A stretch of DNA of 7,261 nucleotides. Origin: a virus (Duplodnaviria > Heunggongvirae > Uroviricota > Caudoviricetes). Made by a program: the position numbers and the translations under genes. The first letter of the stretch is position 1. Each line of letters opens with the position of its first letter. Shown here piece after piece: positions 1 through 7,261 of the stretch. The notes under the pieces are model-generated. The model was not told where the DNA came from. It saw nothing but the letters and a program-made list of their open reading frames with translations, and did no database searches. The DNA is taken from the IMG/VR virus record IMGVR_UViG_2778261276_000010, positions 1 to 7,261 of that record; one strand, written 5' to 3'.

Positions 1-186
1 ATGGCAGAAAGGTTCGTGAAAACGATGAAGGAAGACTACATCGCGTTCATGCCGAAACCGAATATAAGAACGGCATTGCATAATCTTGCAGTGGCGATCG
101 AACATTACAATGAAAACCATCCGCACAGTACGTTGGGTTATCGCTCTCCGCGAGAATATCGACGTCAGCGGGTAACGTTAACTTAA
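1..186 (+). CDS. IS3-family transposase (OrfB/integrase core), C-terminal fragment; 5' part lies outside the window
   Basis: The translation [21 protein letters not shown]...[22 protein letters not shown] resembles the C-terminus of IS2 InsD-type transposases (..[33 protein letters not shown]..) recalled from memory. The ATG at 1 is probably an internal Met. Confidence 0.7.
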
Positions 187-223
187 GATACACCCCCTGT
201 CTGGAAATAAGGGGGCAAGAACA
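1..223 (+). mobile_element. Right end of an IS3-family (IS2-like) insertion sequence, truncated by the window start; includes the transposase 3' end and a terminal inverted repeat
   Basis: Positions ~188-223 read TACACCCCCTGTCTGGAAATAAGGGGGCAAGAACA, which resembles the IS2 terminal inverted repeat as I remember it (..TGTCTGGAAATATAGGGGCAAATCCA). The exact end point is uncertain by a few bp. Confidence 0.55.
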
Positions 224-227
224 ATGA

Positions 228-971
228 TTAGATTCCCTGGTGAGTAAGAATTTTACTTTCTGAACTCCTCTGAGAGTATTGACTTGGAGAAACACCAAAA
301 TAACGTCTAAATACATAAGTAAAGTATGAGACACTGGCATAACCACAGACCTTAGCTACTTTACTAATAGGATAACAACGAGTGCTGAGTAAATATTCAG
401 CCATTTGCATCCTCTCATCAAGTAGGATCTTACTGAATGATACCCCCTCTTCTTTCAATTTCCTCTTTAGTAAACTTTCGCTGAGATATAATCTTGATGA
501 TATATCCTTAAGATGCCATGGTGCAGATAAATCCGTATGAATAATCGTTTTAACTTTAGCCCCTGTGCTTTTCAAACATCCAAACAGAAATACTCCAAAT
601 TGTTTTTCAGAAGAAAATGCAGAGAGACATGTAAAAGCAATAGACTCATCAAAAATTTCTATATATTCAGCACAGTGATTAGCCCAACTAATTAATCCTT
701 TAATTAAACTGAAGTCAGCAAAGTTTATTTTTAAATAAGATGGATATTCCCTACAATCAGAAATATCCCTTAAGTTATTAGCTTTCAAATAGCGACTAAT
801 AAACTCAGCGCCAAAATCCGCCACTATCACTCTTTCAGGATATGTCAGGAAAAAATCTCTATAGCTAGAGTCGACAAGTACAGATAAACCTCTATCCAGA
901 AACACACTCTCTTTTCCGAAATAAACATCAAAGGACTCCAAAATCAATATAACTGAACATGTAGTTGCCAT
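228..971 (-). CDS. AraC/XylS-family transcriptional regulator, AppY/YdeO/GadX-like
   Basis: The C-terminal HTH region (WHLKDISSRLYLSESLLKRKLKEEGVSFSKILLDERMQMAEYLL..CGYASVSYFTYVFRRYFGVSPSQY) closely resembles E. coli YdeO and AppY as I recall them, and the N-terminus MATTCSVILILESFD matches their MxxVCSV motif. I prefer the ATG at 971 (GGTGGA Shine-Dalgarno-like sequence ~5 nt upstream) over the ORF-track start at 980. Sampled 60-nt stretches are about one-third G+C. Confidence 0.8.
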   Translation of the reverse strand: MATTCSVILILESFDVYFGKESVFLDRGLSVLVDSSYRDFFLTYPERVIVADFGAEFISRYLKANNLRDISDCREYPSYLKINFADFSLIKGLISWANHCAEYIEIFDESIAFTCLSAFSSEKQFGVFLFGCLKSTGAKVKTIIHTDLSAPWHLKDISSRLYLSESLLKRKLKEEGVSFSKILLDERMQMAEYLLSTRCYPISKVAKVCGYASVSYFTYVFRRYFGVSPSQYSQRSSESKILTHQGI

Positions 972-1554
972 ATCATCCACCCAATTTAACTGAAACCAGG
1001 ATGAAGTATATGCATATAAAGTTCACTTTGCCAAACTTCAGTATAAAAAACCACATAAAAAATAGGGTGTGATAAAAAATACCGTAAAAATAAAGTAAAG
1101 GATTATAAATTCCGTTACAGTTACAAATGATACTAAAGAAACAATTCCTTAGAAAACCTTATTTACAGCCAATAAGTAAGACACTTATATGATATCAAGT
1201 TTTCATAAAACATAACTAGGCTAAATAGCTGCGCCTAATACCGCTACACTTTTGCCAGCCCATGTTTGCCTCCGGGTATTGACCCCTTCTCTACGCAACT
1301 TCAGTTCCCACCACCAACTTTGCGGCAGCTTTGTAGGATCAATGTCTAAAAGAATAATGGTGACCGATAAGAAAACGACTGAATAACTGCAGATTTTCGC
1401 TCGAAACCTTCCTGTCAGATCCATAGCGAATCAAGTGCTGAATGTCACAGTATCGAACAGAAAACAGTGACGATCTAACCCTTCAAGAATATTCTACGAT
1501 TGTTCTGTTTAGGAAAAGCAAGGCGGGAAGTCGGGAGATAAGTCATTGATAAAG

Positions 1555-1620
1555 TGGCGGAGAGAGGGGGATTTGCCCCCCCGGTAGAGTTGCCCCTACT
1601 CCGGTTTTCGAGACCGGTCC
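1555..1620 (-). other. 3' partial copy of tRNA-Ser (anticodon CGA): anticodon stem-loop, long variable arm, T-arm and acceptor 3' strand with CCA; probable att-site remnant of an integrated element
   Basis: The reverse complement reads GGACCGGTCTCGAAAACCGGAGTAGGGGCAACTCTACCGGGGGGGCAAATCCCCCTCTCTCCGCCA. It has a CCGGU/ACCGG anticodon stem with loop CUCGAAA, a long variable arm, a 5-bp GGGGG/CCCCC T-stem and a TCTCTCC-G-CCA 3' end. The 5' acceptor strand and D-arm are absent: upstream sequence is unrelated. The T-loop reads GGCAAAT rather than the conserved TTCRAAT. Confidence 0.65.
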
Positions 1621-1699
1621 AATCATCAAACGAAACATAAAATTAATTCACATTATGAGGAAAAGTATCTTTTTTGTACTTGTAAATTCAAAGGCTTAG

Positions 1700-2569
<870 letters not shown>

Positions 2570-2588
2570 GTCTTTAAGTGATAAGCAT

Positions 2589-2630
2589 AAACCGCAGCAC
2601 GATCTTCTTGCATACGACGTGCTACGGTTT
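2589..2630. terminator. Hairpin between the convergent GIY-YIG-like gene and pin; possible bidirectional terminator
   Basis: AAACCGCAGCACG (2589-2601), a 16-nt loop, then CGTGCTACGGTTT (2618-2630). This gives a 13-bp stem with one G-U wobble, followed by a U-rich run when read on the plus strand. The long loop makes it atypical. Confidence 0.35.
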
Positions 2631-3184
2631 CATTTATCTCCGACCGGAAACTTCTTATACAGTGTCGATATACCAACATCATAGATGATCGCCACCTTTT
2701 GGCGAGGAACGCCTGATGCAATTAATCGCCCGGCCTGCGCCCATTGTTCTGGTGTAAGTTTGGGACGACGTCCACCAATTCGTCCCTGTGCGCGAGCTGC
2801 TTCCAGTCCAGCTTTTGTTCGTTCAACAATCAGTTCACGCTCCATTTCAGCCAGGGCACCCATCACATGAAAGAAAAAGCGCCCCATTGGGGTACTGGTA
2901 TCAATTGAATCCGTCAGACTACGAAAGTTGATGCCTCGTTCGCGCAACTCCTCCACCAGCACGACAAGATGCCGCATACTGCGCCCCAGTCGGTCCAGTT
3001 TCCAGACCACCAGCGTGTCACCTGCCGATAATGTCCTGAGCAGCTTTTTCAGTCCTGGTCTGTCGGACTTTGTACCGCTTATCTTGTCTTCAAAAATCAG
3101 CTCACATCCTGCACAGTTCAGCGCATTACGTTGTAGATCGGTATTCTGGTCATTTGTTGATACACGTATATAGCCAATAAGCAT
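2630..3184 (-). CDS. pin: Serine-recombinase DNA invertase of the Pin/Gin/Hin/Cin family
   Basis: The translation from MLIGYIRVSTNDQNTDLQRNAL... is near-identical in layout to e14 PinE and Mu Gin as I recall them, with the catalytic Ser in the RVS motif, GRxxKL and a C-terminal HTH (IYDVGISTLYKK). Start chosen at the internal Met (ATG 3184..3182) with GGGGGA 8 nt upstream; the ORF-track start at 3220 adds 12 unlikely residues. Confidence 0.9.
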   Translation of the reverse strand: MLIGYIRVSTNDQNTDLQRNALNCAGCELIFEDKISGTKSDRPGLKKLLRTLSAGDTLVVWKLDRLGRSMRHLVVLVEELRERGINFRSLTDSIDTSTPMGRFFFHVMGALAEMERELIVERTKAGLEAARAQGRIGGRRPKLTPEQWAQAGRLIASGVPRQKVAIIYDVGISTLYKKFPVGDK

Positions 3185-3238
3185 GTTAAATCCCCCTGGT
3201 AAAAGCAGGAATGATGCCATTTGCTTGTTATTTCTTCA

Positions 3239-3264
3239 TTTTCATAAACGTTGGTTTGGGAGAA
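3239..3264. repeat. Invertase crossover site A (hix/gix-like 26-bp site, core TT at 3251-3252) containing a 14-bp inverted repeat (3251-3264)
   Basis: TTGGTTTGGGAGAA at 3251-3264 is the exact reverse complement of 5081-5094. The flanking half-site TTTTCATAAACG shows 8/12 dyad symmetry with the other half. Confidence 0.6.
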
Positions 3265-3600
3265 TTATCTCTGGCTGGCACTGCATCGGGTGTCATTGGT
3301 CTGAATGGGTATGTAACGATTCCGTTAATTATTTCAGGTTCCCGGAGAACACTGATTATTCAGTGGGGGCAGGCGAGATTTGGTGGGTCTGGTGGTGAAG
3401 ATGCCGGATATCTTAATGATTTTCCTTTTGCCTTTCCGTCAGCATGTTATGGAATGATAGTTAGTCATGTGGGGCATACACCTTCAGGCGCAGGAATCCT
3501 GTCGGCTTCTGCAATTACATCAAATCAGTTCCGCGGTTTTTCAAGCATAGCGACTGCTGCAAACGCTGTATTAGGTCGTTATATCGCTATAGGGGTGTAA
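3253..3600 (+). CDS. Alternative tail-fibre C-terminal cassette (Sv'-like), currently silent; lacks its own start and would fuse in frame to the constant N-terminal region after inversion
   Basis: The frame is open from the inverted repeat (GGT TTG GGA GAA, codon-aligned identically to the same sequence in the tail-fibre gene) to TAA at 3598-3600. The ORF-track N-terminal extension MMPFACYFFIFINV (3211-3252) is probably not translated. Confidence 0.6.
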   Translation, partial: GLGELSLAGTASGVIGLNGYVTIPLIISGSRRTLIIQWGQARFGGSGGEDAGYLNDFPFAFPSACYGMIVSHVGHTPSGAGILSASAITSNQFRGFSSIATAANAVLGRYIAIGV

Positions 3601-3601
3601 T

Positions 3602-4039
3602 ATGTTTTATAGTCCATCTTTAAACATTTTTGTGAATCCTGCACTTAAGGATGATTACATTAATGCAAATTCATGGCCAGATGATGCTCTGGCTGTCAGT
3701 GATGATGTTTATAATGAATTTGCAATAAATACGCCCCCAGATGGCAAAATTCGTGTTGCAGGAGAGAATGGATTACCCACATGGGCACTAATACCTTCAC
3801 CATCACATGAAGAACTTATTCAACAGGCAGAATCAGAAAGGCAATTATTGCTTAATCAGGCCAACGAATACATGAACAGTAAACAATGGCCCGGTAAAGC
3901 CGCTATTGATCGTCTGAAAGACGAGGAACTGGCGCAATATAATTTGTGGCTGGATTACCTGGACGCACTGGAGCTGGTTGATACCTCCAGTGTGCCAGAT
4001 ATTGAATGGCCTACGCCTCCGGCAGTTCAGGCCAGATGA
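3602..4039 (+). CDS. Tail-fibre assembly protein (Tfa/Mu U-like), partner of the silent cassette
   Basis: Begins 1 nt after the cassette stop. The C-terminus LDYLDALELVDTSSVPDIEWPTPP matches the conserved Tfa C-terminal motif, also seen in the other tfa copy. Confidence 0.8.
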   Translation: MFYSPSLNIFVNPALKDDYINANSWPDDALAVSDDVYNEFAINTPPDGKIRVAGENGLPTWALIPSPSHEELIQQAESERQLLLNQANEYMNSKQWPGKAAIDRLKDEELAQYNLWLDYLDALELVDTSSVPDIEWPTPPAVQAR

Positions 4040-4613
4040 CATCCGGCGCTGTGCTGGTATCTGTTGCCGTCACCGCGTCAATGTAATCCAGCACAGTGTT
4101 AAGTCGGGTGGTCTCTGCCTGCATCAGCTTCCGCCCGGCCTGCAATTTAAGTTGAATCAGACTAATGGAAGCCATTGCAGTATTAATCAGTGACTGACGC
4201 TGTACTTCTGCCGCGTCTACTGCGGCGCTATGCTGTGCCTCAGTATCGGTCACCCATTTCTTACCATCCCATTTATCGAATGGCGTTAACGGGGCGATAG
4301 TGGTTGTATTTTCAGGATAATCACCCGGAGCTGTGATTTCTTTGGCGTCTCCCGTTTCGGTGTTATAGACGATTTCACCGCGATGGTCTGGCACATATTC
4401 CCATGAGTTTAAATCCATCGAACGGCAGATAGCATAACCCGCCTTATGTATACCAGGTTCATCCAGACAGGAATATGCAGGGATACCGACACCAATGGCA
4501 AGATATTCATTTGAAGTAGAAATATATTCCCGAGTTTTACCATCATAGTTATAGACGGTAATATTCCCCGCCTTCGTGGCAATAAGCTCGCTATTTAATA
4601 CGGCGTTATCCAT
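4011..4613 (-). CDS. Tail-fibre assembly protein (Tfa), partner of the currently expressed tail-fibre variant
   Basis: 200 aa with C-terminus VLDYIDAVTATDTSTAPDVIWPELP, the same Tfa motif. The start overlaps the tail-fibre stop as TAATG, with GAGGG ~8 nt upstream. Its 3' end overlaps the other tfa convergently by 29 bp. Confidence 0.8.
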   Translation of the reverse strand: MDNAVLNSELIATKAGNITVYNYDGKTREYISTSNEYLAIGVGIPAYSCLDEPGIHKAGYAICRSMDLNSWEYVPDHRGEIVYNTETGDAKEITAPGDYPENTTTIAPLTPFDKWDGKKWVTDTEAQHSAAVDAAEVQRQSLINTAMASISLIQLKLQAGRKLMQAETTRLNTVLDYIDAVTATDTSTAPDVIWPELPEA

Positions 4614-5383
4614 TATGCAGCCCTCACGATATAGTTAAATGCAATATTTCGTGGACGGGTTTCACTCCCGCCAGTATTACCGATACTCCCTCGTGAATGA
4701 AGTGTCGGTGATGGGATCAGACTCCCTCCTGTATTTGTGGCATCAAGTCCCCGTCCTTGTGTGTATGTCTTTTTGAAAATCGTAGCCAGTTCCCATTCAT
4801 CTTTTGTGTCGTAACCATCATTGGCAACAACAATATGGCGGTGTTTTTCCAGCATCCCTGTCTGAATGCTCAATAAAACACGTCCTGCATCAATACCGCG
4901 CCCGTCATCCCAGCCACGAATAAACTCACCACGTAAATCAGGCAATTTATTTGTCGGATAAGCCTTTGCCAGTTCCGGGTATTCTTCAGCAGAAAAAGCC
5001 GCACCGTTGCATTTCAGCCAGCCTGTTGGCGGTGTGGCTGAAGGCCATGGAACAGGCACACCAACAGGTAATGCAGAGCCTTCTCCCAAACCAAGGTTTT
5101 CGAGAGCCGTTTGCACAGTGCCATCCGATTTGATATCGCCAAACGGATTCTTGCGGCTTAACAGCAGCGCGCGAAGTGCGGTAAGTAACTGGTCGTGCCG
5201 CCCCTTCTCCAGGCTGGCACCGGATGCCTCCACCACGCTGCAAAGTTCCTCCTGCAACATGTCAAAGTAGTCATCATCCAGATCGGTGGCAGGTGTGCCG
5301 GTCTGGGGGTTACCACGGGTAAAACCGTTCTTACCCGCGCCGAACTTATCCTTCTGCGCGGTTTTCGTGTCTATACGATGCAT
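4613..5383 (-). CDS. Short tail-fibre protein: constant N-terminal region (codons 1-101, outside the invertible segment) fused to a variable C-terminal region with a phage tail-collar-like motif
   Basis: 256 aa. The C-terminal part (..[47 protein letters not shown]..) resembles the phage tail-collar domain. GGAG lies 7 nt upstream of the ATG. The 14-bp inverted repeat falls at codons 98-101 (..LGLGE). Confidence 0.8.
5081..5106. repeat. Invertase crossover site B (hix/gix-like 26-bp site, core AA at 5093-5094) containing the 14-bp inverted repeat (5081-5094)
   Basis: TTCTCCCAAACC-AA-GGTTTTCGAGAG has half-sites with 9/12 dyad symmetry and resembles hixL (TTCTTGAAAACCAAGGTTTTTGATAA) and gix sites from memory. 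Confidence 0.65.
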
Positions 5384-5386
5384 GGA

Positions 5387-5536
5387 TTACTCCGGATATC
5401 CTCGCTGCTGCCGTGATTGACCAGGCTTGTAGGACTTCCAGCCTTCACCTTTGTGATTTTCACAGTAGCCAGATGGGTCTGTTGTGGTGTTGCGACAGCC
5501 GCGAACACGGCAAGCCTTTGGTGTGCGCGGTGGCAT
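5387..5536 (-). pseudogene. 49-codon ORF resembling the N-terminus of a phage HNH endonuclease; probable remnant at a deletion junction
   Basis: My own translation is MPPRTPKACRVRGCRNTTTDPSGYCENHKGEGWKSYKPGQSRQQRGYPE. The C-x4-C...YC..H pattern followed by QRGY is typical of the start of phage HNH endonucleases (~110 aa) that sit next to terminase genes. Here the ORF stops 3 nt before the tail-fibre ATG. Not in the supplied ORF track. Confidence 0.4.
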
Positions 5537-5599
5537 ATTCACTCCCTAAAAAACGTATAGCATTATCGCAGACACTTAATGAATGCCTGCTGAATGCCA

Positions 5600-5803
5600 C
5601 TAATCGTCGAGTTGCAATACACCGTGCTCAAGTGACTCTGAGTAAGCGATCAGCCCTGTGTATTCAGGGATAATCTCGCCATCATCCGCTTCGAATTCCG
5701 GGATTGTACCAGTGGTGATGGTGTATTGGGGCTGACCATCTTCTTTCGCGAATGCTGCTAGGTCTTCAATCTGCTTAGCTGTAAGAACTACTGTCATGCT
5801 CAT
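5600..5803 (-). CDS. Small acidic hypothetical protein (65-67 aa)
   Basis: ORF with GAGG 8 nt upstream of the second ATG (5797), so the true start may be 5797. No recognisable motif. Confidence 0.5.
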   Translation of the reverse strand: MSMTVVLTAKQIEDLAAFAKEDGQPQYTITTGTIPEFEADDGEIIPEYTGLIAYSESLEHGVLQLDD

Positions 5804-5815
5804 ACCTCAGTTGTT

Positions 5816-5838
5816 AAAAAGCCCCGCTATTGCGAGGC
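5816..5838 (-). terminator. Rho-independent terminator downstream of the lysis cassette
   Basis: The minus-strand transcript reads GCCUCGC-AAUA-GCGGGGC-UUUUU: a 7-bp GC-rich stem with one G-U pair, a 4-nt loop and a U5 tail, 24 nt after the stop of the membrane-protein gene. Confidence 0.45.
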
Positions 5839-5861
5839 TATGATTGACTAAAGTGATGCTG

Positions 5862-6137
5862 TCAGGTGTGGGTCCAAATGAATTTAACAATCCCAATAAT
5901 GCTAGCCAGAACGCCAAAACCAAAAATAAATTGACCACATACCCCTATGATTCCCGATGCAATGGCACCGGCATTTGTCTGAGCATTTTCGTTTATGCTC
6001 GCCCCCACTAGATACATAATCAAACCAACTATGAGAGATGCGATAATCCAATGTTCCACTGCTAATACAATTACAATGCTCAAAATATCTGCTAAACCAT
6101 CACTATGACCACTCACTGCATATCCTTGCTTTGACAT
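5862..6137 (-). CDS. Small integral membrane protein (91 aa, 2-3 predicted hydrophobic helices), function unknown
   Basis: Hydrophobic stretches ILSIVIVLAVEHWIIASLIVGLIMYLVG and GAIASGIIGVCGQFIFGFGVLASIIGIV. Lies immediately downstream of the spanin genes. Confidence 0.55.
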   Translation of the reverse strand: MSKQGYAVSGHSDGLADILSIVIVLAVEHWIIASLIVGLIMYLVGASINENAQTNAGAIASGIIGVCGQFIFGFGVLASIIGIVKFIWTHT

Positions 6138-6203
6138 TTGAAAAATTCATCACTGGATTATAATTGTTTACACCCTTCATAGTCGTTCGAATATGATAAA
6201 AAA

Positions 6204-6740
6204 TCAATTGTGGGGGATAGCGTTATTTGACTCTCTCAACGAGTCGTAAATACGTTCACACGTCATCCCGGCGGTGTAGCGTTCGTCAGCGATTCCAGCA
6301 TAACGTTTAGCTTCTGCTGCAATATCTCCGAGCATGTCGGCGAACATTCCGGCGTCGGCGTCGGTTGTTTTGCTTCGGACGGCAGCGGCAAGATCAGCGG
6401 TGTGCTTTGCGGCGTCCAGGCGTGCGGCAAGCTTTGTTGCTTCGGTACGCAACTGGCTAACAGTGGCAGACAGGCCAGCAGCAGTGGCAGCAGATTTAGC
6501 GGCTTGTGCTTGTGCATCTTTTACAGCCTCATCACGGGCAATTATGCGCCCTTGTTCAATCCAGCGTGCGGCAGTCTGCGCGTTCGCTTCCTGTGAAGAT
6601 TCCATGCTATTGTGGTCAGCCCACTTCTTTTGCCAGCCCCGCTCACTCCAGATGTTCCCGACAAGAAATGCACCAGCCAACATCAGCAAAACAATGATTG
6701 TTTTCCACCGCGCCTGAACAAAAGCAAAGACCGCTGTCAT
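6204..6740 (-). CDS. Rz-like i-spanin (inner-membrane spanin subunit)
   Basis: Has an N-terminal transmembrane helix ([20 protein letters not shown]) followed by an Ala/Gln/Lys-rich, coiled-coil-like periplasmic domain. The start overlaps the endolysin stop as ATGA. It contains an embedded lipoprotein ORF. Confidence 0.8.
6263..6517 (-). CDS. Rz1-like o-spanin (outer-membrane lipoprotein), embedded in the +1 frame of Rz
   Basis: Signal peptide [22 protein letters not shown] with lipobox L-A-S-C, then a proline-rich mature region ([21 protein letters not shown]). GAGG lies 9 nt upstream of the ATG. Entirely inside the Rz ORF in a different frame. Confidence 0.7.
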
Positions 6741-7261
6741 ACCAGCAACGCCGCCCGCGCTTTGTTATAACGACTATTTCTGTCAGCCAGTCCATTCTGG
6801 CCACCGTTGATGATCTGCGTTACACGGACAACATCACCTGAATACATCAGACAACCACGTAATGTGAAATACCATGCAGCAGAACGGGCTGCATGTTTCT
6901 CCTGTGTCAGCAACTCTGGTGTGCTGATCAGATCCAACTTCAGCGCCGCACCGCATTTGGCGTAGTTCTCGCGGCCGGTGATTTGAAGCAGGCCACGACC
7001 GCGATATTTCCAGCCGTCACCCTGGCTGTTATTCCCCATGCGGTCACCATAAACCAGATTGGCTATTTGCGGCTGGTGGGCTACCTGCTTACCATCGACA
7101 CGCCCCAGCATTTCACACTGATAAGGCGTCAGGCGTTTACTAAAGGTTTTCTTCAGCCCGTCTACCGAGTAGTTGAAGCTTTCCACCAGCGAGGTAAAAC
7201 CAGCAGATTCATGCCCAACTTGTGCAATGAACATGGCCTGATCGTTAACTGCTGTGATTCC
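6737..7261 (-). CDS. Phage endolysin, glycoside hydrolase family 19 (chitinase-like lysozyme); 5' end lies beyond the window
   Basis: Motifs [15 protein letters not shown] (two Glu about 9 residues apart) and [15 protein letters not shown] match the GH19 signature. The frame stays open upstream of the Met at 7234 to the window edge (..[19 protein letters not shown]), so the real start is probably off-window. Confidence 0.85.

Follow-up and report, generated by a model that had tools for sequence, protein, structure and literature searches.

Gene content and chromosomal setting of the locus

The window (the whole analysed stretch of 7,261 nucleotides) carries a pin gene next to a segment that is bounded by two recombination sites and filled with tail-fibre genes (Table 1), every part of which was assigned by Pfam, PHROGs and PDB. 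The constant N-terminus of the fibre (Sc) lies outside this segment, while two in-frame alternative C-termini, the collar-type tip Sv and the gp53-like tip Sv′, lie inside it, each with a tfa gene behind. Sv is related to the collar regions of T4 gp37 and gp12. The two tfa genes are convergent and overlap by 29 bp, and the one encoding 145 aa starts 2 nt past the Sv′ stop codon. The gene after pin encodes the defence nuclease PD-T4-3/CMoRE.

Table 1. Features of the invertible locus and of the adjoining deletion scar (positions in the window).
Feature	Position	Strand	Length	Description
pin	2630..3184	-	184 aa	Serine DNA invertase (catalytic residue Ser9); gene directed away from the invertible segment
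Putative Fis-dependent recombinational enhancer	3100..3162			Two 15-mers resembling the Fis consensus, within the 5′ part of pin
Pin-proximal ORF	3211..3600	+		18-aa leader MMPFACYFFIFINVGLGE, then the unfused alternative tip Sv′
Pin-proximal recombination site	3239-3264		26 bp	Reverse complement TTCTCCCAAACC AA CGTTTATGAAAA; crossover dinucleotide 3251-3252
Sv′ tip (segment-internal part)	3253-3600	+	111 aa	Pfam Gp53-like_C, 1e-12
tfa	3602..4039	+	145 aa	Chaperone paired with the gp53-like tip; Pfam Caudo_TAP, 4e-34
tfa	4011..4613	-	200 aa	Chaperone paired with the collar-type tip; Pfam Caudo_TAP, 3e-31
Assembled fibre gene	4613..5383	-	256 aa	Pfam Collar, 2e-15, residues 108-155
Collar-type tip Sv	4613-5080		155 aa	Variable part of the fibre gene
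Fibre-proximal recombination site	5081-5106		26 bp	TTCTCCCAAACC AA GGTTTTCGAGAG; crossover dinucleotide 5093-5094
Fibre constant part Sc	5093-5383			Together with the shared GLGE codons
Deletion scar	5387..5542	-		Remnant of a phage HNH endonuclease gene (its first ~47 codons) joined to the final 3 codons of ymfQ

Pin has the organisation of the Fis-dependent serine invertase family, with an N-terminal catalytic domain, a nucleophilic serine and a C-terminal HTH (Pfam Resolvase, 9e-52; HTH_7, 5e-13), and the N-terminal MLIGYxRVSTNDQ motif round Ser9 is intact. Its sequence shares 95.7% identity with K-12 PinE and, over 181 aa, 80% with Mu Gin, and it matches the Gin structure PDB 3uj3 with E = 1e-94. 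A mechanical list of open reading frames gave a 196-aa pin ORF from an ATG at 3220 (2630-3220), which we rejected in favour of the start at 3184 (MLIGYIRVS). As originally predicted, pin lies just outside one of the two sites, adjoining that at 3239-3264.

Two features of the fibre genes differ from the original prediction. The ORF on the strand opposite to the fibre gene had been described as start-less; two ATGs in its frame, at 3211 and 3214, precede the repeat by 13-14 codons, and its homologues are annotated as CDS in RefSeq. The fibre, taken to be unusually short, is of a common size, given that K-12 StfP has 209 aa and that intact e14-like prophages carry fibre genes of 212-256 aa directly after ymfQ.

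Sequences related to the window's left part adjoin yagP/paoD, with a tRNA-Ser fragment near; this fragment was recognised by BLAST only, and ARAGORN called no tRNA. A match to Rfam RF04351 was not accepted as tRNA evidence, because it concerns an unrelated plastid family and its 31.8 bits lie below the gathering score of 68. In the strict sense, e14 is defined by integration at icd together with an mcrA gene that follows pinE, a combination that does not apply to the window. The yagP/paoD setting and the PD-T4-3/CMoRE cargo therefore mark the element as e14-like, a sister of e14 rather than e14 proper.

The prophage had been predicted to lack other structural genes, and a deletion located between lysis cassette and fibre gene explains this absence. 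When the window was aligned with both strain G4/9 and strain 2018-05-5CC, the junction could be mapped to the base (5397-5399, at a TAT microhomology), and gene maps of intact relatives indicate that ~17.8 kb is gone, starting within the HNH gene and reaching the end of ymfQ, comprising the terminase, head, tail and baseplate genes. The HNH′-YmfQ′ fusion protein has no match in the gene index from either start, the 46-nt junction is absent from GTDB species representatives, and no complete E. coli genome spans at least 80% of the window. By these searches, the junction seems to be rare.

Recombination sites, putative enhancer and predicted exchange of fibre tips

Exactly two copies of the 14-mer TTGGTTTGGGAGAA are present in the window, one on the plus strand (3251-3264) and one on the minus strand (5081-5094), forming a perfect inverted repeat, with 0.10 matches expected by chance and at least two copies in 0 of 200 shuffles. 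Allowing one mismatch, the repeat grows to 19 nt (3246-3264 and 5081-5099). Both copies are embedded in 26-bp sites that are identical at 21 of 26 positions and resemble Mu gix (17/26 for the pin-proximal and 18/26 for the fibre-proximal site), which bears out the prediction of 14-bp repeats inside hix/gix-like sites. Internal dyad symmetry is imperfect in both (8/12 and 9/12, respectively), and the asymmetric central dinucleotide AA is common to both, in inverted orientation. The inverted repeat published for e14, TTGGTTTGGGAGAAGG (PMC12529663), agrees exactly with the core of the fibre-proximal site. A third copy of the 14-mer was not found in the window even at up to two mismatches, for which reason a multi-state switch of the shufflon or Min type was rejected.

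The right-hand repeat covers codons G98-L99-G100-E101 (GGT TTG GGA GAA) of the 256-aa fibre gene, and the left-hand repeat provides the same GLGE codons in the plus-strand ORF that stops at 3600, so that the predicted identical codon alignment holds. When 3253-5092 is inverted in silico, the reading frame is preserved, the fibre ORFs of the two orientations measure 256 and 212 aa with a common 101-aa prefix, and the 155-aa collar-type tip is exchanged for the 111-aa gp53-like tip. The in-frame swap and the assignment of a separate tfa to each tip thus stand as predicted, with the sizes corrected to 111 aa for the tip (not 112) and 212 aa for the alternative fibre (not 213).

Within the 5′ end of pin, two 15-mers resemble the Fis consensus: TATCAACAAATGACC agrees at six of seven consensus positions and GTGCAGGATGTGAGC at all seven. 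Their centres lie at 3155 and 3107, a spacing of 48 bp, and the proximal one is 96.5 bp from the crossover centre. Mu gin and K-12 pinE possess the same or near-identical 15-mers at equal spacing and equal distance from gix, in a region that is also constrained by protein coding, which partly confounds their conservation. By sequence, these 15-mers are candidate Fis-binding sites that fit the enhancers of this invertase family, in which two Fis sites 48 bp apart lie in cis about 100 bp from one recombination site; enhancer geometry has been described for Hin (PMC3798978). A simple scan of the window found no sigma-70-like promoter for pin; it returned 3 promoter-like matches where 6.6 were expected, and was of little use.

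By analogy with the Gin/Hin paradigm, Pin dimers would bind both 26-bp sites, and Fis, bound to the putative enhancer within pin, would promote assembly of an invertasome. The central AA/TT dinucleotides would then receive staggered cuts, and a 180-degree subunit rotation would invert the 1840 bp between them. In the orientation seen, fibre residues 1-97 and GLGE are joined to the collar-type tip, followed by the 200-aa Tfa; in the other, the same residues would be joined to the gp53-like tip, followed by the 145-aa Tfa.

Both orientations in natural genomes

Public complete genomes already hold the relevant "experiment", in the form of near-isogenic isolates that differ by the flip only. Over 8400 bp of the homologous locus, O157:H7 strain 113 differs from strain 119 solely by a precise inversion of 1889 bp (0 other mismatches), and a series of near-identical cattle isolates is divided between the two orientations. 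The flipped junction predicted from the window is present with 100% identity over 400 bp in 4 complete E. coli genomes, and with at least 96% in 17. When flipped, positions 2600-5400 are colinear with strain E7476 at 99.7-99.9% identity, save for an IS insertion. The Sv′ allele of the window adjoins pin in 47 genomes and Sc in 24. In addition, the e14 P segment inverts within K-12 cultures (PMC4272514; PMC12529663).

In two alternative readings, the locus does not recombine. According to one, the inverted repeat would be a mere by-product of two diverged fibre-gene copies sharing a GLGE-coding motif, a notion that fits the position of the repeat within coding sequence in both copies. However, identity breaks off sharply on the variable side, the sites continue as 26-bp gix-like dyads into non-homologous flanks, and exact reciprocal junctions are present in natural genomes; the by-product reading is already refuted by the precise inversion between O157:H7 113 and 119, and we give it virtually no credence. 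According to the other, repeats and pin would be recent leftovers of a switch that is frozen in this strain, as might be suggested by the single orientation displayed by one assembled sequence and by the decay of the prophage. Against this stand a full-length Pin with its close identity to the active PinE, two intact sites whose core is that of the active e14 sites, and other E. coli Pin-family invertases able to act on these sites in trans. We therefore consider a frozen switch improbable; judging from its sequence, the window's own copy should still flip.

Present role and relation to known systems

Together, the results confirm the locus as an intact e14-type P segment, a real but ordinary case of an already known system. 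Less firmly, although still with high probability, we interpret it as a two-state, Pin-catalysed switch in the fibre operon of an e14-like E. coli prophage that now persists, most likely, as a still-flippable relic. The predicted designation as a host-range switch holds for the ancestral role and for the DNA-level architecture. It does not hold for the present role: a virion of the same element, as served by tail-fibre host-range switches such as Mu G, P1 C and p15B Min, is missing here, and with its virion genes deleted the element cannot build a particle whose host range could change. The 17.8-kb deletion thus makes a still-flippable relic the most likely status, rather than a working host-range switch. 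This status is argued from the genes missing within 7.3 kb and from comparison with relatives, and selection for a host function is possible.

One such function would be anti-phage defence. In this scenario, the host has co-opted the switch as a phase-variable device, and the ORF at 3211-3600 is expressed now, its product masking outer-membrane receptors. The window configuration is equivalent to the "inverted" K-12 state, and the ORF is the counterpart of K-12 StfE2, with a leader 17/17 identical to that of StfE and a gp53-like domain; StfE2 has been reported to block adsorption of phage T2 (PMC12529663). Moreover, the pin end of the P segment has been kept together with a defence gene in three independently deleted e14-like prophages (K-12 e14, G4/9 and the window), the defence gene of the window being PD-T4-3/CMoRE. 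However, the gp53-like tip is only ~37% identical to that of K-12, the AGGA motif 0-3 nt from the ATGs is poorly spaced for a Shine-Dalgarno sequence, the scan detected no promoter for the ORF, and PADLOC has no model matching it. The ORF may be a mere frame left open across the site, as for S′ in Mu, and the StfE2 claim comes from over-expression and docking in a single study (PMC12529663). We thus regard co-option by the host as unlikely, and the same applies to its extended form, in which the gutted prophage would keep the switch to toggle an adsorption blocker of other receptor or phage specificity, forming a small defence island with the type IV nuclease CMoRE.

Even less probable, in our estimation, is a role in trans, whereby the fibre and its Tfa would equip another myovirus prophage or tailocin of the same cell whose YmfQ/baseplate is compatible, and the switch would still set the host range of that particle. 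The constant N-terminus is indeed widespread, as the Sc part of the probe matches ~2,000-2,600 of 5,426 genomes, often in several places each. The fibre gene also retains its ribosome-binding site (GGAG), and the lysis genes precede it on the same strand without an intervening terminator-like site. On the other hand, the window bears no sign of a second compatible prophage, and fibre genes are normally supplied in cis.

With the still-flippable relic as the preferred reading, the window offers a clean, base-resolved example of a switch outliving the decay of its own prophage. The remaining interest lies in whether host defence is what preserves fibre switches that have been orphaned in this way, as claimed for K-12 by one 2025 study (PMC12529663), a question for which the divergent gp53-like allele of the window is a natural test case.

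For discovery, the locus carries little weight, since the description of the system dates from 1985, RefSeq annotates it, and its flipping has been measured in culture. The e14 P segment and PinE are reportedly the subject of Plasterk and van de Putte in 1985 and of Mehta et al. in 2004. The RefSeq annotation of the system is pinE.

The closest known system is e14 of K-12, which shares the gene order Sc - [Sv - tfa - tfa′ - Sv′] - pin - type IV restriction gene, the crossover core and the kind of host prophage, a deleted e14-like lambdoid/myovirus hybrid. Fibre residues 1-101 are those of StfP (101/101 identical), and the 200-aa Tfa is 86.5% identical to TfaE. By contrast, the segment measures 1840 bp in the window and 1797 bp in e14, and the alleles differ: the collar tip is 61% identical, the gp53-like tip ~37% (compared with the StfP tip) and the 145-aa Tfa 51% (compared with TfaP). 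The two elements also differ in location (icd for e14, beside yagP/paoD for the window's relatives) and in the cargo after pin (mcrA in e14). The internal deletion of the window is different and larger, and its orientation is opposite to the K-12 reference.

The predicted Mu G / P1 C / e14 P architecture is likewise supported, all structural elements of such a switch being present and intact. As in Mu G/Gin and P1 C/Cin, a constant S N-terminus lies outside the segment, S/S′ C-termini and U/U′ chaperones lie inside, and the invertase gene is located just outside one of two 26-bp sites; the Fis-consensus-like 15-mers of the putative enhancer are also the same or nearly so in Mu, at the same 48-bp spacing and 96.5 bp from the site. 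Unlike the window, Mu represents a complete phage, whose switch has been shown to alter host range, with a segment of ~3 kb, far longer fibres (S = 504 aa) and GA rather than AA as the central dinucleotide of gix. Hin/hix of Salmonella belongs to the same invertase subfamily and follows the Fis/enhancer logic that is proposed for the window, and hixL has the central AA found in the window sites, but Hin flips a promoter and does not exchange protein C-termini.

The invertible segment and its genes

Within the 7261-bp window, the 14-mer TTGGTTTGGGAGAA has exactly two copies, 3251-3264 (+) and 5081-5094 (-), and allowing up to two mismatches reveals no third; 0.10 matches are expected by chance, and none of 200 shuffles held two. 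In a repeat search, the pair grows to 19 nt with one mismatch and constitutes the longest inverted repeat within 2500-5600. The surrounding 26-bp sites are identical to each other at 21 of 26 positions, share an asymmetric central AA in inverted orientation, and match Mu gix at 17-18 of 26. The repeat corresponds to codons G98-L99-G100-E101 of the 256-aa fibre ORF, and the plus-strand ORF ending at 3600 carries the same four codons (GLGE) in frame. Inversion of 3253-5092 (1840 bp) in silico keeps the reading frame and yields a 212-aa protein that has residues 1-101 in common with the 256-aa fibre, the variable parts being 111 and 155 aa, respectively. The inverted repeats of the original prediction are thus borne out; its 112-aa tip and 213-aa fibre were each one residue too long, and in the plus-strand ORF that it called start-less, the ATGs at 3211 and 3214 are in frame.

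Features of the switch and of the deletion junction (window positions; domains from Pfam)
Feature	Position	Strand	Sequence or assignment	Remark
26-bp site, fibre side	5081-5106		TTCTCCCAAACC-AA-GGTTTTCGAGAG	dyad imperfect, 9/12
26-bp site, pin side	3264-3239	reverse complement	TTCTCCCAAACC-AA-CGTTTATGAAAA	dyad imperfect, 8/12
pin, 184 aa	2630-3184	-	Resolvase + HTH_7	
256-aa fibre	4613-5383	-	phage tail Collar domain	residues 108-155
Alternative tip	3250-3600	+	Gp53-like_C	
200-aa tail-fibre assembly protein (Tfa200)	4011-4613	-	Caudo_TAP	
145-aa tail-fibre assembly protein (Tfa145)	3602-4039	+	Caudo_TAP	
HNH-YmfQ fusion ORF, 51 aa	5387-5542	-	in frame	three-way alignment

PHROGs agree with the Pfam assignments of the five switch gene products. 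The collar tip is similar to the T4 gp37 and gp12 collar regions, and the gp53-like tip bears a weak likeness to an R1 pyocin fibre. The recombinase is 80% identical to Mu Gin, with the active-site stretch MLIGYxRVSTNDQ conserved, and Gin is also its best solved-structure match (3uj3, E = 1e-94). The tfa genes are convergent and overlap by 29 bp (4011-4039); an 18-nt inverted repeat within them (89%; 3949-3966 / 4075-4092) arises because their homologous C-terminal coding regions (…LDY(L/I)DA…) face each other.

Following the Gin/Hin paradigm, Pin dimers would occupy both sites, synapsis would depend on Fis and an enhancer, and the central dinucleotide would be cleaved, with a 180-degree rotation. 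As now oriented, the operon comprises the constant N-terminal part of the fibre (Sc) with the collar tip, then Tfa200; after a flip, it would comprise Sc with the gp53-like tip, then Tfa145.

It had been suggested that the 5′ third of pin be inspected for a Fis enhancer. The Fis consensus is GNNYRNNWNNYRNNC, and, scored over the seven positions of this degenerate motif, the 15-mers TATCAACAAATGACC (centred at 3155) and GTGCAGGATGTGAGC (centred at 3107) match at six and seven, respectively. Their spacing is 48 bp, and the proximal one is separated from the crossover centre by 96.5 bp. In Mu gin, where the first 15-mer is identical and the second matches at 14/15, neither the spacing nor the distance from gix differs, and both 15-mers are likewise present in K-12 pinE; the geometry also matches that of the Hin enhancer, where about 100 bp separate hixL from the proximal Fis site (PMC3798978). 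This likeness is supportive of a candidate enhancer but is not proof, because the motif is degenerate and the region codes for the conserved active site.

Both orientations among sequenced genomes

The junction that a flip should create, between Sc and the gp53-like tip, was searched for in 5,426 complete E. coli genomes. Four match it perfectly over 400 bp (100%), two others match at 99.8%, and 17 reach 96% or above; the window's own junction type was found in 513. The window's gp53-like allele adjoins pin in 47 genomes and Sc in 24. Strain E7476 is colinear with the flipped form of window 2600-5400 (99.7-99.9%), the sole interruption being an ISCro1 insertion. This IS66-family element (2510-5353 of L005, the E7476 locus) lies within the 145-aa tfa homologue inside the invertible segment, and thus leaves the E7476 gp53-like fibre without its chaperone; the two alignment blocks there share 8 query bases, in keeping with a target duplication of 8 bp.

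The strongest evidence for flipping comes from near-identical O157:H7 cattle isolates, with one orientation in strains 113-118, 130, 131, 136 and 137 and the opposite one in 119-121, 132-135 and 138-141. Inverting the 1889 bp that separate the two sites removes every difference between the 8400-bp loci of strains 113 and 119 (0 mismatches). In K-12 cultures, both orientations coexist (PMC4272514), with about 30% inversion in the wild type, raised by PinE or PinQ (PMC12529663). The parts, the sites, the reading frame and the natural recombinants with exact reciprocal junctions support the predicted Pin-driven tail-fibre inversion switch; for the window's own strain, we infer flipping.

The deleted prophage and its cargo

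Identity over window 1-5399 is 99.9% with E. coli G4/9 and 97.5-99.4% with many further genomes, O157:H7 among them; upstream of the fibre gene, these genomes carry ymfQ and baseplate J, and O157:H7 also a full contractile-tail module. Window 5397-7261 is 100% identical to strain 2018-05-5CC, where its counterpart (lysis cassette, two small genes and an HNH endonuclease gene) belongs to an intact e14-like prophage, ordered as ymfK/ymfT/ymfL early region, HK97-type head, Mu-like tail, ymfQ, fibre, tfa, tfa′ and pinE. In a three-way alignment, the breakpoint falls at 5397-5399, where there is TAT microhomology, and ~17.8 kb is missing. This deletion accounts for the previously noted lack of other structural genes and for the fusion ORF, in which the first ~47 HNH endonuclease codons run into the last three of ymfQ (…GYPE*). 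Searches for the HNH-ymfQ junction found no instance among the GTDB species representatives, in the gene index or in the 5,426 complete E. coli genomes. The fibre is not unusually short, as had been supposed: K-12 StfP has 209 aa, and the fibres of intact relatives 212-256 aa.

Because there is no baseplate to carry the fibre, the switch no longer has a host-range function unless particles come from another prophage. The fibre gene keeps a GGAG ribosome-binding site and is preceded by the lysis genes, which are on the same strand; a scan found no terminator-like site between them, so the fibre gene may still be transcribed late after induction.

Between the spanin gene and the HNH remnant lie two small conserved phage genes, 5600-5803 (-; phrog_9518, 67 aa) and 5862-6137 (-; phrog_28582, 91 aa), whose products have no Pfam or PADLOC match; the latter looks hydrophobic and membrane-like in translation. 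An 84-aa ORF (6263-6517, -), nested out of frame in the DUF2514/Rz-like spanin gene (6204-6740, -), resembles an Rz1-type o-spanin in having a proline-rich tail and a lipobox-like motif, LLASC.

At the other end, an IS3-family transposase is represented by a C-terminal fragment (integrase core; 1-186, +), followed by a low-GC (about 33%) AraC-family regulator gene (228-980, -); both are kept at the locus in G4/9 and O157:H7. The 81 nt at 1540-1620 match part of a tRNA-Ser gene region of E. coli at 97.5% identity; since ARAGORN called no tRNA there, the stretch reads as a truncated copy of tRNA-Ser that probably represents an old duplicate of the attachment site. The single Rfam hit there, sub-threshold and to an unrelated plastid family (RF04351), is uninformative either way.

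Just beyond pin, the gene at 1796-2569 (+) matches PD-T4-3 over its full length (E = 2e-140). This defence system, which has lately been given the name CMoRE, is a type IV nuclease of the GIY-YIG kind and cleaves phage DNA containing 5hmC or glucosyl-5hmC. K-12 e14 has mcrA, likewise a type IV restriction enzyme, in this position (7347-8180 of L007, the K-12 locus). On the same far side of pin, strain 2018-05-5CC carries a retron Ec67 reverse transcriptase beyond the GIY-YIG gene (L004, 10285-12120), and Z1322HEC0006, where pin is truncated, a DUF262 protein (L006, 1990-3879). Across these relatives the slot holds different defence-type genes and resembles a hotspot of variable cargo at the end of the prophage.

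StfE2 and the relation to e14

The single non-trivial angle of the switch concerns the pin-proximal ORF. According to a 2025 paper (PMC12529663), inversion of the K-12 P segment creates StfE2, a pin-proximal leader joined to the gp53-like StfP tip, which blocks adsorption of T2 and some other phages. The window's configuration is equivalent to that inverted state. The leader of ORF 3211-3600 is identical to that of StfE2 (17/17), but the gp53-like tip only about 37% so; expression signals are weak, with AGGA 0-3 nt from the ATGs, and a promoter scan found none for this ORF. That it encodes an StfE2-like adsorption blocker is improbable.

The system as such is already known and carries the RefSeq annotation pinE. 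The published e14 inverted repeat, TTGGTTTGGGAGAAGG, bounding a P segment of 1797 bp, has the same core as the window's sites. Conservation relative to K-12 is complete in the constant fibre part (101/101 with StfP), and stands at 95.7% for Pin (PinE), 86.5% for Tfa200 (TfaE), 61% for the collar tip (StfE), 51% for Tfa145 (TfaP) and about 37% for the gp53-like tip (StfP tip). The window's element type adjoins yagP/paoD, with the tRNA-Ser fragment nearby, whereas K-12 e14 resides at icd, and the cargo gene after pin differs as well. Given these differences in chromosomal site and cargo, the sequence comparison marks the element as a sister of e14 rather than e14 itself, with the same switch but different receptor-binding alleles.
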